Positions 45,047 through 57,127 of a stretch of DNA of 64,000 bases are shown in pieces (the stretch's first letter is position 1; every line of letters begins with the position of its first letter). Both the position numbers and the translations under genes were made by a program. The notes beneath the pieces are model-generated. The model searched no databases. It had not been told where the DNA came from and saw only the letters and a list, made by a program, of their open reading frames with translations. The stretch lies in sequence record NC_054918.1; one strand, written 5' to 3'. This DNA comes from Escherichia phage vB_EcoM_G4498.

Positions 45047-48000
45047 ATGGCCGAGATTAAAAGAAAGTTCAGAGCAGAAGATGGTCTGGACGCAGGTGGC
45101 GATAAAATAATCAACGTAGCTTTAGCTGACCGTACCGTAGGAACTGACGGTGTTAACGTTGATTACTTAATTCAAGAAAACACAGTTCAGCAATATGATC
45201 CAACTCGTGGATATTTAAAAGATTTTGTAATCATTTATAATAATCGTTTTTGGGCAGCAACGGATAATATTCCAAAACCTGCTGGAAATTTTAATAGAAT
45301 TCGTTGGAAAGCATTACGTACTGATGCCGTATATACAACCGTATCATCTGGACCATATCAATTAAAATCCGGAGAAGCAATTTCAGTAGATACATCAGTT
45401 GGCAATGACATTGAGTTTACTTTACCACCTTCTCCGCTTGATGGAGAAACCGTAATAATTCAAGATATCGGTGGAAAACCTGGCATAAATCAGGTTAAAA
45501 TAAATTCTTCAAATCAGAGTATTGTCAATTTTAGAGGTGAACAGGTACGTTCAGTTTTAATGACTCATCCAAAGTCACAGATGATATTCATTTTTAATAA
45601 TCGTTTGTGGCAAATGTATGTTGCTGATTATAGCAGAGAAGCTGCGATTGTTACTCCATCGACTGCGTATCAAGCACAATCTAATGATTTTATCGTACGT
45701 AGATTTACTTCTGCTGCACCAATTAATGTTAAACTTCCGAGATTTGCTAATCATGGCGATATTATTAATTTCGTTGATTTAGATAAACTGAATCCACTTT
45801 ATCATACAATTGTTACTACATACGATGAAACGACTTCAGTACAAGAAGTTGGAACTCATTCCATTGAAGGCCGTACATCGATTGACGGTTTCTTGATGTT
45901 TGACGATAATGAGAAATTGTGGAGATTGTTTGACGGGGATAGTAAAGCACGTTTACGCATTATAACAACTAATTCAAATATTCGTCCAAATGAAGAAGTC
46001 ATGGTATTTGGCGCGAATAATGGAACAACCCAAACAATTGAACTTCAGCTTCCGACTGATATTTCTGTTGGTGATACTGTTAAAATTTCCATGAATTACA
46101 TGAGAAAAGGACAAACAGTTAAAATCAAAGCTGCTGGTGAAGATAAAATTGCTTCTTCAGTTCAATTGCTGCAATTCCCAAAACGTTCAGAATATCCGCC
46201 TGAAGCTGAATGGGTAACAGTTCAAGAATTAGTTTTTAACGGTGAAACTAATTATGTTCCAGTTTTACAACTTGCTTATATAGAAGATTCTGATGGAAAA
46301 TACTGGGTTGTACAGCAAAACGTTCCAACTGTAGAAAGAGTAGACTCTTTAAATGCTTCTACTAGAGCAAGATTAGGCGTAATTGCTTTAGCTACACAAG
46401 CTCAAGCAAATGCTGATTTAGAAAATTCTCCGCAAAAAGAATTGGCAATTACTCCAGAAACGTTAGCTAATCGTACTGCTACTGAAACTCGCAGAGGTAT
46501 TGCAAGAATAGCAACTACTGCTCAAGTAAATCAGAACACCACATTCTCTTTTGCAGATGACCTTATCATCACTCCTAAAAAGCTGAATGAAAGAACTGCT
46601 ACAGAAACTCGTAGAGGTGTCGCTGAAATTGCTACGCAGCAGGAAACTAATACAGGTACTGATGATACTACAATCATCACTCCTAAAAAGCTTCAAGCTC
46701 GTCAAGGTTCTGAATCATTATCTGGTATTGTAACTTTTGTATCTACCGCAGGAGCTACTCCAGCTTCTAGTCGTGAATTAAATGGTACGAATGTTTATAA
46801 TAAAAACACTAATAATTTAGTTGTTTCACCTAAAGCTTTGGATCAGTATAAAGCTACTCCAACGCAACAAGGCGCAGTAATTTTAGCAGTTGAAAGTGAA
46901 GTAATTGCTGGACAAAGCCAAGAAGGATGGGCAAATGCGGTTGTAACACCAGAAACGTTACATAAAAAGACATCAACTGATGGAAGAATTGGTTTAATTG
47001 AAATTGCTACGCAAAGCGAAGTTAATACAGGAACTGATTATACTCGCGCAGTCACTCCTAAAACTTTAAATGACCGTAGAGCAACTGAAAGTTTAAGTGG
47101 TATAGCTGAAATTGCTACGCAAGTTGAATTCGACGCAGGCGTCGACGATACTCGTATCTCTACACCATTAAAAATTAAAACCAGATTTAATAGTACTGAT
47201 CGTACTTCTGTTGTTGCTCTATCTGGATTAGTTGAATCAGGAACTCTCTGGGGCCATTATACCCTTAATATTCTTGAAGCAAATGAGACACAGCGTGGTA
47301 CACTTCGTGTAGCTACACAAGTTGAAGCTGCTGCAGGAACATTAGATAATGTTTTAATAACTCCTAAAAAGCTTTTAGGTACTAAATCTACCGAATCGCA
47401 AGAAGGTGTTATTAAAGTTGCAACTCAGTCTGAAACTGTGACTGGAACGTCAGCAAATACTGCTGTATCTCCAAAAAATTTAAAATGGATTGTGCAGAGT
47501 GAACCAACTTGGGCAGCAACTACTCTGATAAGAGGGTTTGTTAAAACTTCTTCTGGTTCATTAACGTTTGTTGGTAATGATACGGTAGGTTCAACACAGC
47601 CATTAGAATCATATGAGAAAAATGGTTATGCAGTATCACCATATGAATTAAATCGCGTATTAGCAAATTATTTGCCATTAAAAGCAAAAGCTGTAGATAG
47701 TAATTTATTAGATGGTCTAGATTCGCTCCAGTTCATTCGTAGGGACATTGCACAAACAGTTAATGGTTCACTAACCTTAACCCAACAAACGAATCTGGGT
47801 GCCCCTCTTGTATCATCTAGTACTGCTACATTCGGTGGATCAGTTTCAGCAAATAGTACATTAACTATTTCTAATACTGGAACGGCAACTCGTCTGATTT
47901 TTGAGAAAGGACCTCAAACTGGAACAAACCCGGCTCAAACGATGACAGTCAGAGTGTGGGGAAATCAATTTAGCGGGGAATCAGACACAACACGTTCTAC

Positions 48001-48916
48001 CGTATTTGAAGTTAGTGATGAAACGTCTAGTCATTTTTATTCTCAGCGTAATAAAGCTGGAAATATAACATTTAATATCAACGGTACAGTAACACCGATA
48101 AATGTTAATGCTTCAGGAACATTGAATGCAAATGGTGTAGCAACATTTGGTAATTCAGTCACTGCAACTGGTGAAATTATTTCTCGAAGCGCAAATGCTT
48201 TCCGTGCTATTAACGGAAATTATGGTTTCATTGTTCGCAATGATGGATCAGTAACGAATTTTATGCTTACTGCATCGGGTGATCAGACTGGTGGATTTAA
48301 TGGATTACGTCCTTTAGCTATTAATAATGCATCTGGCCAAGTAACGATTGGTGAAAGCTTAATCATTGCCAAAGGTGCTACTATAAATTCAGGCGGTTTG
48401 ACTGTTAACTCGAGAATTCGTTCTCAGGGCACTAAAACATCTGATTTATACACCCGCGCTCCAACATCTGATACTGTAGGATTCTGGTCAATTGATATTA
48501 ACGATTCAGCCACTTATAACCAGTTCCCGGGTTATTTTAAAATGGTTGAAAAAACTAATGAAGTGACTGGGCTTCCATACTTAGAACGTGGCGAAGAAGT
48601 TAAATCTCCTGGTACATTGACTCAGTTTGGTAACACACTTGATTCGCTTTACCAAGATTGGATTACTTATCCAACGACCCCAGAAGCACGTACCACTCGC
48701 TGGACGCGTACATGGCAGAAAACTAAAAATTCTTGGTCAAGTTTTGTTCAGGTATTTGATGGAGGTAACCCTCCTCAACCTTCGGATATAGGAGCAATCC
48801 CATCTGATAATGGAATAATAGGTAATCTTACTATTCGTGATTTCTTACGAATTGGTAATGTTCGCATTATTCCTGACCCAGTGAATAAAACTGTTAAATT
48901 TGAATGGGTTGAATAA
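45047..48916 (+). CDS. 34: Long tail fibre proximal subunit gp34
   Basis: 1289-aa ORF; repeated TPKxL-type fibre repeats. Confidence 0.95.
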   Translation: MAEIKRKFRAEDGLDAGGDKIINVALADRTVGTDGVNVDYLIQENTVQQYDPTRGYLKDFVIIYNNRFWAATDNIPKPAGNFNRIRWKALRTDAVYTTVSSGPYQLKSGEAISVDTSVGNDIEFTLPPSPLDGETVIIQDIGGKPGINQVKINSSNQSIVNFRGEQVRSVLMTHPKSQMIFIFNNRLWQMYVADYSREAAIVTPSTAYQAQSNDFIVRRFTSAAPINVKLPRFANHGDIINFVDLDKLNPLYHTIVTTYDETTSVQEVGTHSIEGRTSIDGFLMFDDNEKLWRLFDGDSKARLRIITTNSNIRPNEEVMVFGANNGTTQTIELQLPTDISVGDTVKISMNYMRKGQTVKIKAAGEDKIASSVQLLQFPKRSEYPPEAEWVTVQELVFNGETNYVPVLQLAYIEDSDGKYWVVQQNVPTVERVDSLNASTRARLGVIALATQAQANADLENSPQKELAITPETLANRTATETRRGIARIATTAQVNQNTTFSFADDLIITPKKLNERTATETRRGVAEIATQQETNTGTDDTTIITPKKLQARQGSESLSGIVTFVSTAGATPASSRELNGTNVYNKNTNNLVVSPKALDQYKATPTQQGAVILAVESEVIAGQSQEGWANAVVTPETLHKKTSTDGRIGLIEIATQSEVNTGTDYTRAVTPKTLNDRRATESLSGIAEIATQVEFDAGVDDTRISTPLKIKTRFNSTDRTSVVALSGLVESGTLWGHYTLNILEANETQRGTLRVATQVEAAAGTLDNVLITPKKLLGTKSTESQEGVIKVATQSETVTGTSANTAVSPKNLKWIVQSEPTWAATTLIRGFVKTSSGSLTFVGNDTVGSTQPLESYEKNGYAVSPYELNRVLANYLPLKAKAVDSNLLDGLDSLQFIRRDIAQTVNGSLTLTQQTNLGAPLVSSSTATFGGSVSANSTLTISNTGTATRLIFEKGPQTGTNPAQTMTVRVWGNQFSGESDTTRSTVFEVSDETSSHFYSQRNKAGNITFNINGTVTPINVNASGTLNANGVATFGNSVTATGEIISRSANAFRAINGNYGFIVRNDGSVTNFMLTASGDQTGGFNGLRPLAINNASGQVTIGESLIIAKGATINSGGLTVNSRIRSQGTKTSDLYTRAPTSDTVGFWSIDINDSATYNQFPGYFKMVEKTNEVTGLPYLERGEEVKSPGTLTQFGNTLDSLYQDWITYPTTPEARTTRWTRTWQKTKNSWSSFVQVFDGGNPPQPSDIGAIPSDNGIIGNLTIRDFLRIGNVRIIPDPVNKTVKFEWVE

Positions 48917-48924
48917 GAGGTATT

Positions 48925-50040
48925 ATGGAAAAATTTATGGCAGAGTTTGGACAAGGATACGTCCAAACGCCATTTTTATCGGAAAGTAATTCAGTAAGAT
49001 ACAAAATAAGCATAGCGGGTTCTTGCCCGCTTTCTACTGCGGGGCCATATGTTAAATTTCAGGATAATCCCGTTGGAAATCAAACATTTAGTGCAGGTCT
49101 TCATTTAAGAGTTTTTGACCCTTCTACGGGAGCATTAGTTGATAGCAAGTCATATGCTTTTTCTGCTTCAAACAATACAACATCTGCCGCTTTTGTCAGT
49201 TTCATGAATTCTTTGTCAAACAATAGACTTGTTGCTATATTAACTAGCGGAAAGGTTAATTTTCCTCCTGAAGTGGTATCTTGGTTAAGGGGAGCAGGAA
49301 CTTCAGTTTTTCCATCAGATTCAGTATTGTCAAGATTTGACGTATCATATGCTGCTTTTTATACTTCTTCTAAAAGAGCTATTGCATTAGAGCATGTTAA
49401 ACTAAGTAATAGAAAAAGCACAGATGATTATCAAACTATTTTAGATGTTGTATTTGATAGTTTAGAAGACGTCGGAGCGACAGGATTTCCAAAAAGAACT
49501 TATGAAAGTGTAGAGCAATTCATGTCAGCAGTTGGTGGAACTAATAACGAAATTGCGCGATTGCCAACTTCAGCTGCTATAAGTAAACTTTCTGACTATA
49601 ATTTAATTCCTGGTGATGTTCTTTATCTTAAAGCACAGTTATATGCTGATGCTGATTTACTTGATCTTGGAACTACAAACATATCCATTCGTTTTTATGA
49701 TGCATCAAATGGATATATTTCCTCGACCCAATCTGAGTTTACTGGGCAAGCTGGGTCTTGGGAATTAAAAGAAGACTATGTAGTTGTTCCAGAAAACGCC
49801 GTAGGATTTACGATATATGCACAAAGAACTGCTCAAGCAGGTCAAGGCGGCATGAGAAATTTAAGTTTTTCTGAAGTATCAAGAAATGGCGGCATTTCAA
49901 AACCTGCCGAATTTGGCGTCAACGGTATTCGCGTTAATTATGTCTGTGAATCGGCTTCACCTCCAGATATAATGGTACTTCCTACACAAGCCTCTTCTAA
50001 AACTGGCAAAGTGTTTGGACAGGAATTTAGAGAAGTTTAA
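48925..50040 (+). CDS. 35: Long tail fibre hinge protein gp35
   Basis: 371-aa ORF MEKFMAEFGQGYVQTPFLSESNSVRYK... Confidence 0.9.
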   Translation: MEKFMAEFGQGYVQTPFLSESNSVRYKISIAGSCPLSTAGPYVKFQDNPVGNQTFSAGLHLRVFDPSTGALVDSKSYAFSASNNTTSAAFVSFMNSLSNNRLVAILTSGKVNFPPEVVSWLRGAGTSVFPSDSVLSRFDVSYAAFYTSSKRAIALEHVKLSNRKSTDDYQTILDVVFDSLEDVGATGFPKRTYESVEQFMSAVGGTNNEIARLPTSAAISKLSDYNLIPGDVLYLKAQLYADADLLDLGTTNISIRFYDASNGYISSTQSEFTGQAGSWELKEDYVVVPENAVGFTIYAQRTAQAGQGGMRNLSFSEVSRNGGISKPAEFGVNGIRVNYVCESASPPDIMVLPTQASSKTGKVFGQEFREV

Positions 50041-50044
50041 ACTG

Positions 50045-50070
50045 AGGGAGCCTTCGGGTTCCCTTTTTCT
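50045..50070 (+). terminator. Intrinsic terminator after gene 35
   Basis: GAGGGAGCCTTCGGGTTCCCTTTTTCTTT. Confidence 0.65.
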
Positions 50071-50071
50071 T

Positions 50072-50079
50072 TATAAATA
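50072..50079 (+). promoter_or_regulatory. Late promoter for gene 36
   Basis: TATAAATA 24 nt upstream of gene 36 ATG. Confidence 0.6.
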
Positions 50080-50102
50080 ATATTAAAATAAAGGGGCATA
50101 TA

Positions 50103-50753
50103 ATGGCTGATTTAAAAGTAGGTTCAACTGTGGGTGGATCTGTCATTTGGCATCAAGGAAATTTTCCATTGAATTCAGCCGGTGACGATGTACTCTACAA
50201 ATCATTTAAAATATATTCAGAATATAATAAACCACAGGCAGCTGATAACGATTTCGTTTCTAAAGCTAATGGTGGTACTTACGCCGGTCCAATTACTATT
50301 AATTACGGGGTAAATAGTTATCTTCAATTAAGTAATAATGAAACCCCTATCCGAATTCGTTCTGGTGGCGGCACTGGTAATACTCTTGTAGTTGGCGGCT
50401 CTTCCGGTGGTATTAGTTTTAGACCTGCAGGTAGTGAAATCACTACTGGACAAATTACTATTACGCCAGAAGGTTTGACAACATTTACCAGGGCTGTAAC
50501 GGCTCCATCGGTAACTGTTACATCTACTCCTTCCGCAGCATCTGATGTTACTCGCAAAGATTATGTTGATGGAGCAATAAATACTGTTACAGCAAATGCA
50601 AACTCTAGGGTATTACGCTCTGGAGACACTATGACAGGAAATTTAACTGCGCCAAACCTTTTTTCACAGAATCCTGCATCTCAACCTTCACACGTTCCAC
50701 GATTTGACCAAATCGTAATTAAGGATTCTGTTCAAGATTTCGGCTATTATTAA
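50103..50753 (+). CDS. 36: Long tail fibre distal connector gp36
   Basis: 216-aa ORF in syntenic position. Confidence 0.9.
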
Positions 50754-50761
50754 GAGGACTT

Positions 50762-53707
50762 ATGGCTACTTTAAAACAAATACAATTTAAAAGAAGTAAA
50801 ACTGCAGGTCAACGTCCTGCTGCTTCAGTATTAGCCGAAGGTGAATTGGCTATAAACTTAAAAGATAAAACAATTTTCACAAAAGATGACTCAGGTAGTG
50901 TTATAGAATTAGGTTTAAAATATGGAGGAACAATTGATGGTTCTTTAACTGTTAATGGAAACATAATTGGAAATTTAACAGGTAACGCTGCAACTGCAAC
51001 GAAATTAAAAACAGCACGAAAAATTAATGGTATATCCTTTGATGGGTCAAAAGATATCACGCTAACTCCATCTGACATAAATGTCAATAGCACAACGTTT
51101 ATAAAAAATAACGGCGAATTACCTGTTGATGCTAATTTAGATGAGTATGGGCCTGTTGAAGAATATCTTGGAGTTTGGTCGAAAGCAACTTCAACCAACG
51201 CTCAACCAGCAAATAAATTTCCAGAAGAAAATGCTGTAGGTGTTCTAGAAGTATTTGTGGCCGGTCAATTTGCTGGTACTCAGAGATATACAACTAGATA
51301 CGGAAATGTTTATATTCGTTCCTTGACTGCTACATGGAACGGAGTAAACGGTCCGTGGAGTGCGTGGCGAAATATTCAATCTGGTACTCGTCCACTGTCA
51401 ACAACGATTGATCTTAATGATCTAGGAGGCGCTGAACACCTTGGTTTGTGGCGAAATAGTTCAAATTCCATTGCTACCTTTGACAGAAATTTCCCAGAAG
51501 AAGGATCGTCCGCTCAAGGACTTTTAGAAGTATATGAAGGTGGAAACTATTCTCGCACACAGAGATATACGACCAGATTTGGTGTTGTTTATACTCGTTG
51601 TCTTGCTGCTGCGTGGGATGCTTCTGCGCCTAAATGGGGACCTTGGCAACAAGTCGGTAATGTCACACCGGCGACTTTCTATGACGGAGATCTGAATGAT
51701 TTTAAAACTCCTGGGTTATATAATATTTTAGGCACTGATGCCGTTATTAACTGTCCTACCGGTGAAGGTTTACCAGCCGTTATTGTTGGTTTGCTGGAAG
51801 TTAAACAGCGTGCTTCTGGCGGTGCTATTTTCCAAAAATTTACTACTGCCGGAACGGGTGCAACTACTCGCGATCGTATTTTTGAGCGTGCATATACTGG
51901 TGGTGTGTGGGGTGCATGGAACGAAGTATATACATCTTATTCCCTGCCAATTACTTTGGGTATGGGTGGTATTAAAACTCAATTAGCGGAGTTAGATTGG
52001 CAAACCTTTGATTTTGTCCCTGGTAGTATGTTTAGTGTTCCTTTGAACAAAATAAAGAATATGCCAGCAAATATGGATTGGGGCACGATTGATGGAAACC
52101 TGGTTATGTTTTCCGTTGGTCCTAGCGAACACACTAGCACAGGACGTACTGTTCAGATTTGGCGCGGCACCGTATCCCAGACAAACTACCGTTATTTCGT
52201 TGTTCGTATCGCTGGTAATCCAGGAAGTAGGACTAATACTTGTCGCCGTGTTGTTCTTGAAGACGGATCACATACTTGGACTGCTCAACAAAACTTTAGG
52301 GGATTGCTGAATATCACTGCTGCTGTTAATCTTGGTGCTAATCAGAAAATTTCACTTGCTCCAGGAGCATATATTCAAGCCCCTGCTAGCGGTTCTGGTT
52401 CTAATACTTACGCAAATCAGAATACTACCATTGCGCCATTATATCAGGCTATTGACGATTCAAATAAAAACCAGTTTGCGCCAATTGTTAAACAGAAAAA
52501 TACTGTAAGTAATATCACCTTTGCCACTGGTATGGCTATAGGTACATCCGAATATAAGATCATTGCTCAGGGTGATTTATCCGCTGATGGAACAGCAGAT
52601 GGGTTAAAACAGTGGACTTTCATGCCGTCAGGTTATTTTAAATCTCCAGGGCGTGTATATGTCGGTGATGCGTTCCTTAATACAGATGGTAATATTGCCG
52701 GTTCAATCTGGAAGAAATATAACAATGCGACAAATTTAGATGCTGCCTTGAATACTCGCGTAGGTAAAGGCGGTGATACGATGACAGGTCGGTTAACAAT
52801 CAATGCACCTAATGATTCTATTGTATTATCAACGACTGCTAGTAATTCTTTGCATATTCGTGGTGACATAGACGGGACTGGTAACTGGTATATTGGTAAG
52901 GGTGGTGCTGATAATTCGCTAGCATTTTATAGCTATGCTTCTCAGGCGGCAGTACATATCACAAACAATGGTGAGATTGCGTTAAACCCGCAAAATACCG
53001 CAATGGTTAACGTTAACCGTGACCGTGTACACATTAACGGTTCTGGATGGATTGCTAGACAACCGGGTGATTGGGGCAACCAATGGCGAGTAGAAGCTCC
53101 ATTATTCGTTGATCATGGTTATGTTTCACAGGATTGTTATTATCCTATTCTTAAAGCAAGAAGCGTTATAACCAATCAAGGATATAGCACCGCTGTTGAC
53201 TTTGGTATGCGTCGTATTCCATCACAGTGGGGGCAAGCAATCATTCGTGTCGGATCCACGGAGGCTTCTCCTGATGCTGGACACCCACAAGCTGTGTTTG
53301 AATTCCATCATGATGGATTCTTTTATACACCAGGAAATGGTAGCTTTAGCGATGTGTATATTCGTTCTGACTCCCGTCTCAAGATTAATAAAGAAGAATT
53401 AGAATATGGAGCGGTCGAAAAAGTTTGCCGACTGAAAGTTTATATTTACGATAAAGTTAAGTCTATTAAAGACCGTAGTGTTATTAAACGTGAAGTTGGT
53501 ATTATTGCTCAGGACCTTGAAAAGGAATTACCGGAAGCTGTATCTAAAGTTGAAGTTGATGGATCTGATGTTCTGACAATTTCTAACTCTGCTGTGAATG
53601 CTCTTTTAATTAAGGCTATTCAGGAAATGAGTGAAGAAATTAAAGAATTGAAAACGCCTCTCTTTACTAAAATTGCTCGCAAAATTAGTAAATATTTTAA
53701 ATTCTAA
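50762..53707 (+). CDS. 37: Long tail fibre distal subunit gp37, T2-type with C-terminal intramolecular chaperone domain
   Basis: 981-aa ORF; N-terminus [22 protein letters not shown]...; C-terminal SDSRLK fits the S-D-x-x-x-K autoproteolysis signature. Confidence 0.9.
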
Positions 53708-53713
53708 CAACAA

Positions 53714-53728
53714 GGGGGAAATGCCCCC
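53714..53728 (+). terminator. Hairpin after gene 37 (weak terminator candidate)
   Basis: GGGGGAAATGCCCCC followed by TTTGG. Confidence 0.4.
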
Positions 53729-53743
53729 TTTGGAGTATAAATT

Positions 53744-54526
53744 ATGGCAGTAGTTGGTGTTCCTGGTTGGATTGGAAGTTCAGCCGCAAATGAAACAGGA
53801 CAACGCTGGATGAGTCAAGCGGCTGGTCAATTAAGATTGGGTGTTCCTTGCTGGATGAGTCAATTTGCAGGTCGCTCACGAGAAATTATTCACACGCTTG
53901 GAGCAGACCATAACTTCAATGGTCAATGGTTCCGAGATAGATGTTTTGAGGCAGGTAGTGCACCTATAGTGTTTAATATTACAGGTGATTTAGTATCATA
54001 TTCTAAAGATGTTCCTTTATTCTTCATGTACGGAGATACACCAAATGAATATGTTCAGTTAAATATACATGGCGTAACGATGTATGGTCGTGGAGGTAAT
54101 GGTGGTAGCAATAGTCCTGGCTCAGCTGGGGGTCATTGTATTCAAAACGATATTGGTGGGAGACTAAGAATTAATAATGGCGGAGCTATTGCAGGTGGCG
54201 GCGGAGGCGGTGGCGGCGGATATTATTCTCCTTTTTCACAAATGAGATTGACCTTTGGCGGCGGTGGCGGTCGTCCTTTTGGTGCGCCAGGCGGATCTAT
54301 TGATATGCAATCAGGCGCGACTGGTGGTACTATTTCTGCACCTGGCTCAGGATCCGTGAATGGTATCTATAATGGCGGAAACGGTGGTGAAGTAGGTTCC
54401 GCGGGAGGTAGATGCAATATTCGCGGTCAAGGATCTGAATATGATGGCGGTGCTGCTGGTTATGCTGTCATAGGGTCCGCTCCAACATGGCAAAATGTTG
54501 GAGCAATATATGGTCCAAGAGTATAA
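53744..54526 (+). CDS. 38: gp38 receptor-recognising adhesin (T2 type, glycine-rich)
   Basis: 260-aa ORF with poly-Gly tracts (GGGGGGGGG, GGGGG) separating short variable segments. Confidence 0.85.
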
Positions 54527-54556
54527 TGTGAATAAATACCCTTAAAAGGAGGGTCT

Positions 54557-55213
54557 ATGGCAGCACCTAGAATATCATTTTCGCCCTCTGATATTCTATT
54601 TGGTGTTCTAGATCGCTTGTTCAAAGATAATGCTACCGGGAAAGTTCTTGCTTCCCGGGTAGCTGTCGTAATTCTTTTGTTTATAATGGCGATTGTTTGG
54701 TATAGGGGAGATAGTTTCTTTGAGTACTATAAGCAATCAAAGTATGAAACATACAGCGAAATTATTGAAAAGGAAAGAAATGCACGCTTTGAATCTGTCG
54801 CCCTGGAACAACTCCAGATAGTTCATATATCATCTGAGGCAGACTTTAGTGCGGTATATTCTTTCCGCCCTAAAAACTTAAACTATTTTGTTGATATTAT
54901 AGCATACGAAGGAAAATTACCTTCAACAATAAGCGAAAAATCACTTGGAGGATATCCTGTTGATAAAACTATGGATGAATATGCAGTTCATTTAAATGGA
55001 CGTCATTATTATTCCGACTCAAAATTTGCTTTTTTACCAACTAAAAAGCCTACTCCCGAAATAAATTACATGTACAGTTGTCCATATTTCAATTTGGATA
55101 ATATCTATGCTGGAACAATAACCATGTACTGGTATAGAAATGATCATATAAGTAATGACCGCCTTGAATCAATATGTTCTCAGGCGGCCAGAATATTAGG
55201 AAGGGCTAAATAA
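54557..55213 (+). CDS. t: Holin T
   Basis: 218-aa ORF; single N-terminal TM segment (VAVVILLFIMAIVWY); position after 38. Confidence 0.9.
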   Translation: MAAPRISFSPSDILFGVLDRLFKDNATGKVLASRVAVVILLFIMAIVWYRGDSFFEYYKQSKYETYSEIIEKERNARFESVALEQLQIVHISSEADFSAVYSFRPKNLNYFVDIIAYEGKLPSTISEKSLGGYPVDKTMDEYAVHLNGRHYYSDSKFAFLPTKKPTPEINYMYSCPYFNLDNIYAGTITMYWYRNDHISNDRLESICSQAARILGRAK

Positions 55214-55486
55214 TTATTTGTTTGTATACATCTCTAGATATCGATATACACCCTCAAAACCCTCGTTGAATTCGTCGATGAGGGTTTTCTTATCTTCTTG
55301 GGTTAATTCAGAAACAATTTTACGGAATGAATTCTGATTTAACTTTCTACCTTCATGCGTTACTCCAATCTCATTCAGAAATGCAATAAAATTAGCACGA
55401 TTCTCAACAATATCTTCTCTGGAAAATTTAATCAAAATAGACGCAACAGTAATAATTTCACGAACTGTATCAATGTTTTTATTCAT
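55214..55486 (-). CDS. asiA: AsiA anti-sigma-70 factor
   Basis: 90-aa ORF MNKNIDTVREIITVASILIKFSREDIVENRANFIAFLNEIGV...; matches T4 AsiA. Confidence 0.9.
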   Translation of the reverse strand: MNKNIDTVREIITVASILIKFSREDIVENRANFIAFLNEIGVTHEGRKLNQNSFRKIVSELTQEDKKTLIDEFNEGFEGVYRYLEMYTNK

Positions 55487-55498
55487 TAACTATACCAC

Positions 55499-55651
55499 TC
55501 AATTAGTTGACTTTATTATAATATCATCAGACGCTTGATTTGTAAACTGGTCTGTGTTATTTTCTTCAAAAATTTTTTCTACGAATTCCTTGAACGACTC
55601 GCGTTCCTGAGCTACATTATGCTCGATTACTTTTTCAAGATTATGACTCAT
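55499..55651 (-). CDS. Candidate 50-aa ORF between arn and asiA
   Basis: ATG overlaps arn stop (ATGA); weak SD; contains the asiA early promoter. Confidence 0.35.
   Translation of the reverse strand: MSHNLEKVIEHNVAQERESFKEFVEKIFEENNTDQFTNQASDDIIIKSTN
55518..55547 (-). promoter_or_regulatory. T4-type early promoter for asiA
   Basis: Minus strand GTTTAC, 18 nt, TATTAT. Confidence 0.5.
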
Positions 55652-55926
55652 TCGAAATAATCTTCAATTTCATAATCATGGACATAAATCATTATAGTTT
55701 TTAATACATCATCAATACTTTTTCCTGGAGCTGGAATTACGTAAAAATATCCTGCTTTTGAGAGGTCTTTATAAGTTCCAACCAAGAAATCATTATTCTC
55801 GAGATGTAATTCTTCAACTAATTCATTAACAATTGAATGGTATAAATTTGGTAGAAACTTATATAGCTTTTCTAGAATATCAATTTTGATTGTATATTGA
55901 ACCACAGATTGAGAATCAATAATCAT
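55648..55926 (-). CDS. arn: Arn anti-restriction nuclease (McrBC inhibitor)
   Basis: 92-aa acidic ORF in the syntenic position next to asiA. Confidence 0.75.
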   Translation of the reverse strand: MIIDSQSVVQYTIKIDILEKLYKFLPNLYHSIVNELVEELHLENNDFLVGTYKDLSKAGYFYVIPAPGKSIDDVLKTIMIYVHDYEIEDYFE

Positions 55927-56009
55927 AGACCTTCCCCTTATGTTTCTGTTTGCGATTAGATTCTTTAAACGCTTTCTTCTTATCCTTATGAACAGAAGCT
56001 TTATTAAAA

Positions 56010-56228
56010 TTATGTTTTGCGACTAAATTGTTCATAGTGCTGAATTACCTCTCTCAAACATTTGCATGTGAATGAAAACTTTTTAGCTACACCACATTCA
56101 AATATATGTTCTCTTAAATCACGTGTGTCAGTATATCCCATCTCAACAATAAAATGTCGTATTAGATTTTTATCTTTATCATTGAGAGAATTAAAATAAT
56201 CGGATTTTGAATTAATTTCCCTGGCCAA
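56010..56228 (-). CDS. Hypothetical protein (arn.x series)
   Basis: 72-aa ORF. Confidence 0.5.
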   Translation of the reverse strand: MAREINSKSDYFNSLNDKDKNLIRHFIVEMGYTDTRDLREHIFECGVAKKFSFTCKCLREVIQHYEQFSRKT

Positions 56229-56508
56229 ATTGAATCACCTTCAGTTGACGTTTTAGTTCTTTTATCATTTCTTCATTCATCGCAATATAAAGATCGCGTA
56301 AAGCGGGTTTTAACATTCCATTTACTGGAGAACTAAATGGACATACATAATCTTTTCCTACGAGCTTTTTAGTGAATTCCATATTACAGAACTGAAATGC
56401 CGGTTCATTAGCATAAATTCCCCAATTGGTTGACATCATTTTATTGGCATATTCCAATGCTTGGATTTGATTAGTAATTCCATCAATTTGAAACTTTTTA
56501 ATATTCAT
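56212..56508 (-). CDS. Hypothetical protein (arn.x series)
   Basis: 98-aa ORF. Confidence 0.5.
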   Translation of the reverse strand: MNIKKFQIDGITNQIQALEYANKMMSTNWGIYANEPAFQFCNMEFTKKLVGKDYVCPFSSPVNGMLKPALRDLYIAMNEEMIKELKRQLKVIQFGQGN

Positions 56509-56975
56509 TAGTAAAGGTCCTCGGAGTAAAGTTCTTTTTCACTACCACCACGTTCAATACGCACTTGTCCAGCGTAAGTTGCAATAATCATTGCTTCTTC
56601 ACGTGTCCAGTAATTGCTATACTGGTCAATAAATCCTTGGTCTTCACCACAAACATGGTCTGATACAAGTTTATCACTTACCTGGTCAAGAACTTCAGCC
56701 ATATCTTTAGAATAATGACGAGCACCAGGAATAACCAGAGTCCCACCATCTTTTAACTTAAAGCGGTTGGCTGCACACACAATTCGACGTTGATATTTTT
56801 CATTATTGTTCCAATGAGCTACTTGCCAACAGATTTCAGGAACCTCTTCTAAAACATCCTCTTCCGTATATTCGGTGTAGTCGCCATAGGCCTGTAATTT
56901 AGCTGCTAGACTTTCTGGAGTTTCACGTAATAAAGCCAGGTCTAATAATTCAAGACGCTCTTTGAAGGTTTTCAT
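56508..56975 (-). CDS. Hypothetical 155-aa protein
   Basis: ORF with ATGA coupling on both sides. Confidence 0.55.
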
Positions 56976-57127
56976 TTGGTTTCCTCAACACTTTTAATTT
57001 TTATAGCTTGTTTAGAACTTTCAAAGCATTGACAATATACTCTTACCGCATCAAACTGGTTGGCCGCTTTAAGATGGACTACACCTTCGTCGTTATAAAA
57101 TTCTACGACAATTTTAAATGTTTTCAT
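56972..57127 (-). CDS. Small 51-aa ORF
   Basis: [51 protein letters not shown]; ATGA overlaps at both ends; below ORF-track cutoff. Confidence 0.45.

Follow-up and report, generated by a model that had tools for sequence, protein, structure and literature searches.

Genes 37 and 38 of Escherichia phage vB_EcoM_G4498 as a predicted T6-subtype receptor-recognition module with a self-processing gp37 and a Tsx-type gp38 cap

Overall organization of the module

The analysed DNA is a stretch of 64,000 nucleotides from sequence record NC_054918.1, hereafter the window. We consider it very likely that genes 37 and 38 in this window make up a T6-subtype module for receptor recognition at the distal end of a Tequatrovirus long tail fibre, composed of a self-processing gp37 and a Tsx-binding gp38 cap. 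The gene structure, the family membership of the products, the conservation of catalytic and docking residues and the identity of the receptor region to experimentally tested adhesins are direct observations. The analysis gave no result at odds with this reading. The two genes are as follows.

50762..53707, + strand: gene 37, long tail fibre distal subunit precursor (ORF, 981 aa, 106.6 kDa)
53744..54526, + strand: gene 38, tail-fibre tip adhesin, T6 subtype (ORF, 783 bp, 260 aa, 26.3 kDa)

A likely course of events can be given for the module. gp37 would be made as a 981-residue precursor, the last 113 residues of which would serve as an intramolecular chaperone (IMC) that drives the beta-helical fibre to trimerise and fold. 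After trimer formation, Ser869 and Lys874 would cut the chain between Arg868 and Ser869, the 12.9 kDa chaperone would depart, and the exposed trimer tip (ending in DVYIR) would be capped by one copy of gp38, with W9, W22 and W37 filling three symmetry-related pockets. The remainder of gp38 would adopt a beta-helix with a polyglycine-II (PGII) sandwich, in which glycine-rich motifs would provide the scaffold; the short variable stretches that separate these motifs would form five distal loops in contact with the host receptor. The 3:1 stoichiometry of gp37 to gp38 and the binding of Tsx in this phage are what we infer from the homologues.

Such a receptor-binding tip is of the ordinary, well-studied kind already known from T6-like E. 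coli phages, and no new question is opened by it since an identical gp38 is present in several deposited phage genomes. The gain is in annotation: gene 37 can be described as coding for a self-processing precursor with a predicted cut at R868|S869 and gene 38 as coding for a Tsx-type adhesin, and positions can be assigned to its five receptor loops. Both the primary receptor of this phage and the route by which hosts would most obviously become resistant, loss of tsx, are thereby predicted. The 783-bp gene 38 is also an exchangeable unit for retargeting, for which precedent exists in CM8, T2/IP008 and PP01-type work.

Identity and mosaic structure of gp37

gp37 matches PHROG 1699 ('long tail fiber protein distal subunit', E 9.7e-202). 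At the nucleotide level gene 37 is 99.6% identical to phage HEMP5, and the matching records in RB14, CM8 and others carry the gp37 annotation. Comparison with T6 gp37 reveals a mosaic, with identities of 70-100% over residues 1-500, 8-72% over residues 501-800 and 98-100% over residues 801-981; the T6 shaft carries another mosaic block at residues 501-800. The gp37 shaft is strongly diverged from T6 over these residues and may have a part in host range. Significant internal repeats in gp37 were not found by self-BLAST; despite this, similar-looking motifs can be seen by eye around residues 150-190, 245-285 and 340-385. Minus-strand ORFs lying within genes 37 and 38 (63-129 aa) are without support and were treated as spurious.

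C-terminal chaperone domain and predicted cleavage of gp37

The features at the end of gp37 are listed below.

53351..53365, + strand: DVYIR (aa 864-868), predicted to be the final strand of processed gp37 and to contribute to the surface on which gp38 docks
53366..53704, + strand: C-terminal intramolecular chaperone / autocleavage domain (aa 869-981, 113 aa; Pfam PF13884, Peptidase_S74)
53366-53368, + strand: predicted catalytic Ser869
53381-53383, + strand: predicted catalytic Lys874, with the conserved Arg872 in between

The original prediction described a gp37 of 981 residues ending in about 113 residues that begin with SDSRLK, and its coordinates proved right: the motif starts at residue 869 (nt 53366) of the ORF at 50762..53707. 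It also took SDSRLK for the Ser-Lys signature of chaperone domains. S-D-x-x-x-K occurs only once in the whole of gp37, and residues 869-927 match positions 1-57 of the 58-position Peptidase_S74 profile with an E-value of 6e-10 and 39.7 bits. SDSRLK is no chance motif because this match exceeds the curated cutoff of 22 bits. The window, T6, T2 and S16 sequences, when aligned, all have the four fixed residues of S-D-x-R-x-K.

A phmmer search of the PDB with the 123-residue C-terminus of gp37 alone gave a convincing match to S16 (6f45_A) only. A profile of four C-termini (window, T6, T2 and S16) matched the ICA domain of MyRF (7dc3, 7.5e-8), a tail fibre (8jov, 1.7e-7) and the GA-1 IMC (3gud, 0.04), while K1F endosialidase chains were not retrieved from the PDB even with this profile. 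S869 and K874 align with the S587(A) and K592 columns of MyRF, and S869 also with the residue at which the released GA-1 domain begins; in 3gud this chain starts at SDERHK. Cleavage of MyRF is abolished by S587A or K592A, and this dyad has been equated with S911/K916 of the endosialidase endoNF (PMC8326128). Both the family match and the alignment with a proven dyad thus bear out the chaperone-domain reading of SDSRLK. The domains of K1F endosialidase, the GA-1 neck appendage (3GUD) and the MyRF ICA (7DC3) are Peptidase_S74 kin of the window domain and share with it a Ser and a Lys five apart at the start, a conserved Arg and a C-terminal helical segment. However, in the window the domain is placed on a fibre that would later be capped by a separate adhesin, whereas in these relatives it belongs to a tailspike enzyme or to a transcription factor of eukaryotes.

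The cut in gp37 is predicted after R868, between nt 53365 and 53366. DVYIR/SDSRLK aligns here with DLNVS^SDRRIKK of the Salmonella phage S16 and with DVYIR^SDGRLKI of an fPS phage. The S16 site is experimentally defined and its IMC comprises the last 113 residues (PMC7917993), so that the layout of a 113-residue C-terminal chaperone cut before S-D-x-R-x-K is like that in the window. The S16 chaperone domain is 29% identical to that of the window, and the sequence before its cleavage site is unrelated except for the last strand. The calculated masses of the predicted products are 93.8 kDa and 12.9 kDa. Peptidase_S74 is present at the C-terminus of T2 gp37 (E 3.3e-15) and at the same place in T6 gp37. 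According to a later paper citing Drexler 1986, T2 and T6 gp37 undergo proteolytic processing before gp38 caps them (PMC3157838), the cleavage of T2 gp37 having been demonstrated biochemically in the work so cited. Judging from these homologues, gp37 of the present phage is probably cleaved as well, and it very probably removes its own C-terminal folding helper.

Domains and receptor loops of gp38

gp38 could be divided into an N-terminal attachment domain and a receptor-binding domain with five loops.

53744..53869, + strand: N-terminal attachment domain, aa 1-42 (Pfam Gp38_N)
53768-70, 53807-09 and 53852-54, + strand: conserved W9, W22 and W37
53882..54523, + strand: predicted beta-helix and polyglycine-II sandwich receptor-binding domain, aa 47-260 (by alignment to 9v85 and 6f45_D)
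54104-54118, + strand: predicted distal receptor loop A, aa 121-125
54224-54253, + strand: predicted distal receptor loop B, aa 161-170
54296-54313, + strand: predicted distal receptor loop C, aa 185-190
54356-54370, + strand: predicted distal receptor loop D, aa 205-209
54416-54439, + strand: predicted distal receptor loop E, aa 225-232

Residues 1-42 match PF21721 (Gp38_N; E 6.2e-20, 71.4 bits) and residues 47-260 match PF05268 (GP38; E 1.4e-71, 241.3 bits), the curated cutoff being 25 bits for either family. gp38 also matches PHROG 2056 ('tail fiber protein; host specificity', E 2.7e-112) and two solved adhesin structures, PP01 9v85 (E 7.8e-79) and S16 6f45_D (E 1.2e-49). These families and structures agree with the T2/T6-type adhesin architecture that had been proposed. 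The proposed length of 260 aa, with poly-glycine tracts between short segments, is equally correct: a run of nine glycines (residues 151-159), a run of five (172-176) and many GG pairs are split by short non-glycine segments, and the glycine content is 24% overall and 37% over residues 115-240. In the alignment with PP01, S16, T2 and T6 the glycine blocks are conserved and the loops are divergent. Positions 53750-54750 show a raised GC content (0.43-0.48) and a GC skew of +0.28, which fit the many GGN glycine codons of gene 38.

W9, W22 and W37 are invariant across the window, T6, T2 and S16. In S16 the three conserved Trp residues of gp38 enter hydrophobic pockets of the gp37 trimer, and the protein contains a PGII sandwich (PMC6851490). 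S16 gp38, which is about 50% identical to that of the window, thus resembles it in the three docking Trp of the N-domain and in the beta-helix and PGII sandwich predicted for the window protein, and docking of the window residues into the gp37 trimer is predicted. Loops A-E were transferred by alignment from the definitions for PP01 (PMC12892980). The receptor-binding domain of PP01 gp38 (PDB 9V85) has a beta-helix (aa about 47-118) and a C-terminal strand almost identical in sequence to the corresponding parts of the window gp38, with the same glycine-rich scaffold, but none of the five receptor loops has the same sequence. The differences are consistent with the difference in receptor, OmpC for PP01 and, as predicted, Tsx for the window gp38; the receptor of S16 is likewise OmpC. 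A single-sequence AlphaFold2 model of gp38 (mean pLDDT 31, pTM 0.20) is too poor for fold comparison, and we infer the fold from sequence homology to the crystal structures alone.

Comparison with phage T4

The order 37-38-t is as in T4, where the position in the genome and the flanking genes (34, 35, 36, t and asiA) are the same as in the window and gp37 is 88% identical over its first 50 residues. It could therefore be asked whether gp38 is a mere assembly chaperone that is not part of the virion, with the receptor-binding tip formed by the C-terminus of gp37 itself, as in T4; yet the '38' position alone is uninformative. T4 gp37 has its own receptor-binding tip, with Collar and Phage_fiber domains but without Peptidase_S74, and residues 751-981 of the window gp37, where the S74 domain and its Ser and Lys are kept, share only 6-18% identity with T4 in a heavily gapped alignment. 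T4 gp38 (183 aa) is an unrelated chaperone which fits no adhesin Pfam family, and the best BLASTP match between it and the window gp38 extends over 12 residues with an E-value of 1.7. The window gp38, on the other hand, matches adhesin families and crystal structures with E-values from 1e-49 to 1e-79 and can be aligned from end to end with the adhesins of T2, T6 and S16. We accord the T4-type arrangement next to no probability and regard it as effectively refuted, in line with the original prediction, which had set the module apart from T4.

Assignment to the T6 subtype

The original prediction had called the module T2-type. This holds for the architecture common to T2 and T6, but not for the subtype: both the gp37 and the gp38 half belong, by their sequences, to the T6 lock-and-key subtype, a concept in which the gp37 C-terminus and the gp38 N-terminus are paired (Trojet et al. 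2011). The N-domain of gp38 is 96% identical to T6 versus 63% to T2, and residues 801-981 of gp37 are 98-100% identical to T6 versus about 26-50% to T2. T2 (receptors FadL/OmpF) has the same module design but represents a different subtype, with 53% identity over the whole of gp38 and a gp37 of 1341 aa, the C-terminal 130 residues of which are about 44-50% identical to the window.

The gene order of T6 is the same as in the window, and its Tsx-binding gp37/gp38 pair has kin alleles in KEP10, HEMP5, REP2/3, CM8, RB14, IP008, KarlGJung (Bas37) and Paracelsus (Bas36). gp38 of the window is 100% identical at the amino acid level to those of KEP10, HEMP5, REP2/3 and Ptacy1496, 99.6% to CM8, 99.2% to RB14, Bas37 and fPS-65, and 94% to T6; for RB14, Bas36 and Bas37 together the range is 98.8-99.2%. 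The sole difference from Shigella phage CM8 is W37L in the N-terminal part, residues 47-260 being identical. RB14 has two substitutions, Bas36 and Bas37 have two or three, and fPS-65 differs only by G194A and D234N. T6 gp38 shows 16 differences from the window and 97% identity over the GRM/HVS region.

Receptor of the gp38 allele

The primary receptor of this allele on E. coli K-12 is, in all likelihood, the nucleoside channel Tsx, which can be named because the experiments were made on phages with gp38 98.8-99.6% identical to that of the window. CM8 depends on Tsx and HepI as determined by RB-TnSeq, and exchange of its gp38 makes it depend on OmpA instead of Tsx (bioRxiv 10.64898/2026.04.02.716166). 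Since the CM8 adhesin is identical but for W37L, this exchange lends indirect support to gp38 as the determinant of receptor specificity at the fibre tip. RB14 uses Tsx (PMC3157838), as do the BASEL phages Bas36 and Bas37.

The same architecture could nevertheless be directed to another porin (OmpA, OmpF, FadL, OmpC or OmpW) as the primary receptor, given that substitutions in the loops can switch receptors: Q206L alone changes RB68 gp38 from OmpF to OmpW (bioRxiv 10.64898/2026.04.02.716166), and a few changes in PST gp38 add OmpA (PMC3157838). Three of the differences between the window and T6 (S165P, D187N and N206I) fall inside the predicted loops B, C and D, respectively. However, comparison of the variable segments with adhesins of known receptor shows that residues 47-260 are identical to those of CM8, which is experimentally Tsx-dependent. 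RB14, Bas36 and Bas37, only 2-3 residues away, are also Tsx-dependent, and the window gp38 keeps the T6-like Q166-M167 and not the PST-like R-I. A porin other than Tsx is therefore highly improbable as the primary receptor.

In addition to Tsx, the adhesin may have a second mode of binding, to LPS inner-core heptose or another beta-barrel, for hosts devoid of Tsx such as Yersinia. This would supplement binding to Tsx and not replace it. Phage fPS-65, with its 99.2% identical gp38, infects both Y. pseudotuberculosis and Y. pestis; the only resistant mutants recovered, in Y. pseudotuberculosis, were of the LPS-core (hldD/hldE) type, and the receptor is heat-stable (PMC7917993). Y. pseudotuberculosis has been reported to be without a Tsx homologue (PMC3157838), and since fPS-65 infects such Tsx-less Yersinia, Tsx would not be the sole surface structure usable by this type of adhesin. 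Many Yersinia phages are also among the closest records to the window genes. However, the LPS-core (HepI) dependence of CM8-like phages has been attributed to gp12, the short tail fibre, and not to gp38 (bioRxiv 10.64898/2026.04.02.716166), and LPS defects indirectly disturb the outer-membrane protein content (PMC3157838). Gene 12 is located outside the window. On balance, such an additional mode seems rather unlikely, and we give only a modest chance to the T6-type gp38 allele being bifunctional, with Tsx as its partner on E. coli and some other, heat-stable structure, either the LPS inner-core heptose region or another beta-barrel, on Tsx-less hosts. If true, bifunctionality would explain the occurrence of 99-100% identical gp38 in phages isolated on E. 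coli, Shigella and Yersinia pseudotuberculosis/pestis. As it has already been raised (Trojet 2011; the fPS-65 paper), it would be an incremental mechanistic clarification.

Intercistronic region and gene context

The order 34-35-36-37-38-t-asiA is common to the window, T4, T6, T2 and S16. A scan for sigma-70 promoters returned 9 sites against 17.4 in shuffles, which is uninformative for a late T4-type operon, and neither tRNA genes nor Rfam families were found anywhere in the 64-kb window. The segment TATAAATT, directly 5' of the gp38 ATG, has what we take to be a resemblance to the T4 late-promoter box; it was rejected as a promoter of gene 38, its end lying only 2 nt before the start codon. 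Two features lie between the genes.

53711..53732, + strand: intercistronic RNA hairpin, lying between the stop of gene 37 and the ribosome-binding site of gene 38 (MFE -14.7 kcal/mol)
53732-53735, + strand: gene 38 ribosome-binding site GGAG, with the ATG at 53744

The hairpin has a z-score of -3.3, and none of 200 shuffles folded equally well. A hairpin is present at the equivalent place in T6, T2, T4 and S16, with stems that differ in sequence.

Long tail fibre genes

The gp37/gp38 feature of vB_EcoM_G4498 is real, not a product of chance, and follows genes 34 to 36 of a T4-like long-tail-fibre operon. ORFs were listed for the range 48000-57000 of the window; those examined do not include gene 12. 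Across the whole 64-kb window (1-64000), no tRNA genes were found and no Rfam family scored above its gathering score.

Genes of the long tail fibre region
45047-48916, + strand: gene 34 (1289 aa), T4-like long-tail-fibre operon
48925-50040, + strand: gene 35, same operon
50103-50753, + strand: gene 36, same operon
50762-53707, + strand: gene 37 (981 aa), ORF call
53744-54526, + strand: gene 38 (260 aa), ORF call
54557-55213, + strand: holin t (Pfam Phage_holin_T, E 1.8e-117)
55214-55486, minus strand: 90-aa ORF at the T4 asiA position, ORF call

Residues 58-112 of gp35 (48925-50040) match the Pfam ILEI ('interleukin-like EMT inducer') domain at 33.2 bits against a gathering score of 27. T4 gp35 passes this score as well (35.9 bits) and S16 gp35 matches weakly, so the match belongs to gp35 in general and is not peculiar to vB_EcoM_G4498.

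C-terminal chaperone domain of gp37

As originally predicted, the 981-residue gp37 ends with 113 residues beginning at SDSRLK (residue 869, nt 53366), the sole S-D-x-x-x-K in the protein. Residues 869-927 match positions 1-57 of 58 of the Pfam Peptidase_S74 profile ('chaperone of endosialidase'; E 6e-10, above the curated cutoff), and since the match begins at profile position 1, Ser869 is the first residue of the domain. A search of solved structures matched the gp37 C-terminus to Salmonella phage S16 gp37 (6f45_A), and PHROGs assignments for both gp37 and gp38 agree with Pfam.

Reference genomes of T4, T6, T2 and S16 were taken from an annotated phage collection. In a four-way alignment of the gp37 C-termini (window, T6, T2 and S16), the motif S-D-x-R-x-K keeps its S, D, R and K in all four. 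Searched as a profile, these C-termini matched 7dc3, the autocleavage domain of MyRF (E 7.5e-8), and 8jov, a tail fibre of another phage (E 1.7e-7); they also matched 3gud (E 0.04), the GA-1 chaperone domain in its released form, whose chain starts SDERHK. S869 shares its alignment column with MyRF Ser587, mutated to Ala in the crystal construct, and K874 with K592. MyRF cleavage is lost in S587A or K592A, and both residues have been equated with endosialidase S911/K916 (PMC8326128). The Peptidase_S74 match and the correspondence with the MyRF dyad bear out the reading of the Ser...Lys signature as an intramolecular chaperone domain.

The last 113 residues of S16 gp37 are likewise the chaperone, cut at DLNVS^SDRRIKK, and in the fPS phages the cut is predicted after DVYIR (PMC7917993); the fPS phages and the window share the context DVYIR/SD.RLK. 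Processing of gp37 followed by gp38 capping is established for T2/T6, according to the account of Drexler 1986 in PMC3157838. In contrast, T4 gp37 has Collar and fibre-repeat domains and lacks the Peptidase_S74 domain carried at the C-terminus by gp37 of the window, T6 and T2.

The gp38 adhesin

gp38 (260 aa) has the predicted architecture of glycine tracts between short segments. Glycine accounts for 24% of its residues and 37% across residues 115-240, with runs of nine (151-159) and five (172-176); GG pairs are also frequent, with short glycine-free stretches between them. GC content is raised and GC skew strongly positive over 53750-54750, the pattern that a run of GGN codons would give. 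Residues 1-42 match Pfam Gp38_N (E 6.2e-20) and residues 47-260 match GP38 (E 1.4e-71). Among solved structures, gp38 matched the receptor-binding domain of PP01 gp38 (9v85, E 7.8e-79; PMC12892980) and S16 gp38 (6f45_D, E 1.2e-49).

Comparison with the reference phages placed gp38 with the T2/T6-type adhesins and not with the T4 chaperone: it aligns with T6, T2 (53% identical) and S16 (about 50%), whereas no similarity to T4 gp38 was seen (best BLASTP E 1.7). With the Ser-Lys S74 domain in gp37 as well, neither of the two outcomes named as refuting the original interpretation was observed, and it is upheld. The label 'T2-type' holds for the module architecture; as a subtype, 'T6-type' is more exact, since both halves of the lock and key are of the T6 subtype. 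Identity to T6 is 96% in the gp38 N-domain (94% over all of gp38, 97% across the glycine-rich/variable region) and 98-100% in gp37 residues 801-981.

In the S16 structure, three gp38 tryptophans dock in three symmetry-related pockets (PMC6851490), and W9, W22 and W37 are their conserved counterparts by alignment. By homology, the gp37 precursor (predicted 106.6 kDa) would trimerise, aided by the domain at its own C-terminus, after which Ser869/Lys874 would cut between R868 and S869 to give a predicted mature chain of 93.8 kDa and a released fragment of 12.9 kDa. A single gp38 would then cap the trimer through these tryptophans, the rest of gp38 presumably forming a beta-helix and a polyglycine-II sandwich. 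We infer cleavage, stoichiometry and Tsx binding in vB_EcoM_G4498 from very close homologues.

Carrying over the five PP01 receptor loops (PMC12892980) by alignment predicts gp38 loops at residues 121-125, 161-170, 185-190, 205-209 and 225-232. The scaffold is near-identical to that of PP01 while all five loops differ, a pattern of sequence that would be expected with different receptors.

In the T6 record (AP018814; L003 13711-13722), the annotated gp38 start lies four codons ahead of the conserved MAVVG start, at a non-ATG codon read as Leu. The corresponding stretch in the window is two bases longer and out of frame, and the ATG (53744 in the window) is therefore likely the true start in both phages.

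Receptor

The receptor, left open in the original prediction, is answerable as Tsx by analogy with published experiments on near-identical adhesins. KEP10, HEMP5, REP2/3 and Ptacy1496 have deposited proteins with the same sequence as the window gp38 (100% identity). In gp38 of Shigella phage CM8 a single residue departs from it, W37L, which lies in the attachment domain. CM8 is Tsx/HepI-dependent in RB-TnSeq screens, and replacing its gp38 from HVS2 onwards with that of EV240 switched it completely to OmpA (bioRxiv 10.64898/2026.04.02.716166). RB14 gp38 (A15V, A199S) comes from a phage whose receptor is Tsx (PMC3157838), and Tsx is the listed primary receptor of the BASEL phages Paracelsus/Bas36 and KarlGJung/Bas37 (PMC8594841 supplement), with two or three gp38 substitutions. 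T6, with its 97% identical glycine-rich/variable region, is the classical Tsx phage.

gp38 of Yersinia phage fPS-65 is also the same save G194A and D234N. With fPS-65 on Y. pseudotuberculosis, the only mutants obtained were in the LPS core, and the receptor was heat-stable (PMC7917993); phages with T6-like adhesins, including RB14, plate weakly on Yersinia, stated to be without a Tsx homologue (Trojet et al., PMC3157838). Two explanations offer themselves: a second mode of binding by the adhesin, or an LPS dependence that lies with the short tail fibre gp12, to which the RB-TnSeq study assigned HepI dependence (bioRxiv 10.64898/2026.04.02.716166). This question has already been raised in the literature.

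Residue 37, Leu in CM8 gp38 (L006), is the conserved docking Trp in the window (53852-53854), T6, T2 and S16. CM8 is viable and Tsx-dependent despite Leu37; either the third docking Trp is dispensable or the CM8 record contains a sequencing error.

Relatives and mosaicism

Shigella phage JK23 shares 99.0% identity with window bases 30001-55000, and Escherichia phage HEMP5 shares 99.6% with the segment of genes 37-38. At the DNA level, 632 phage records match this segment; at the protein level, 836 match gp38. The accurately described module is a textbook one that public genomes already contain unchanged, and so already known.

Compared with T6, gp37 is a mosaic of the kind usual among such fibres. 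Its N-terminal half and last 180 residues are conserved, whereas residues 501-800 (52262-53161) form a different block (8-72% identity; flanks 86-100%). Identity also drops, though less, to 70-78% over residues 201-300. GC content is raised to 0.43-0.45 over 51250-52250, within gene 37.

Intergenic hairpins

A stable RNA hairpin (53711-53732; -14.7 kcal/mol, z -3.3) separates the stop codon of gene 37 from the ribosome-binding site of gene 38 and looks like the classic T4 intercistronic stable hairpin. Hairpins occur at the same place in T6 (L003 13694-13711) and in the T2, T4 and S16 records (L004 11055-11072; L002 9626-9645; L005 26795-26813), with stems differing in sequence and mostly UUCG or UACG tetraloops; the window loop is AAAUG, with no tetraloop. 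Directly before the gp38 ATG, TATAAATT (53734-53741) has one mismatch to the T4 late-promoter box, TATAAATA. It is too near the ATG to serve as a gene 38 promoter and T6 has AAAATT instead; the likeness is probably incidental. Another strong hairpin occupies the gene 35/gene 36 gap (50044-50065; -15.1 kcal/mol, z -3.25); it has a C(UUCG)G tetraloop, a T-run comes after it, and a consensus scan also called it terminator-like.
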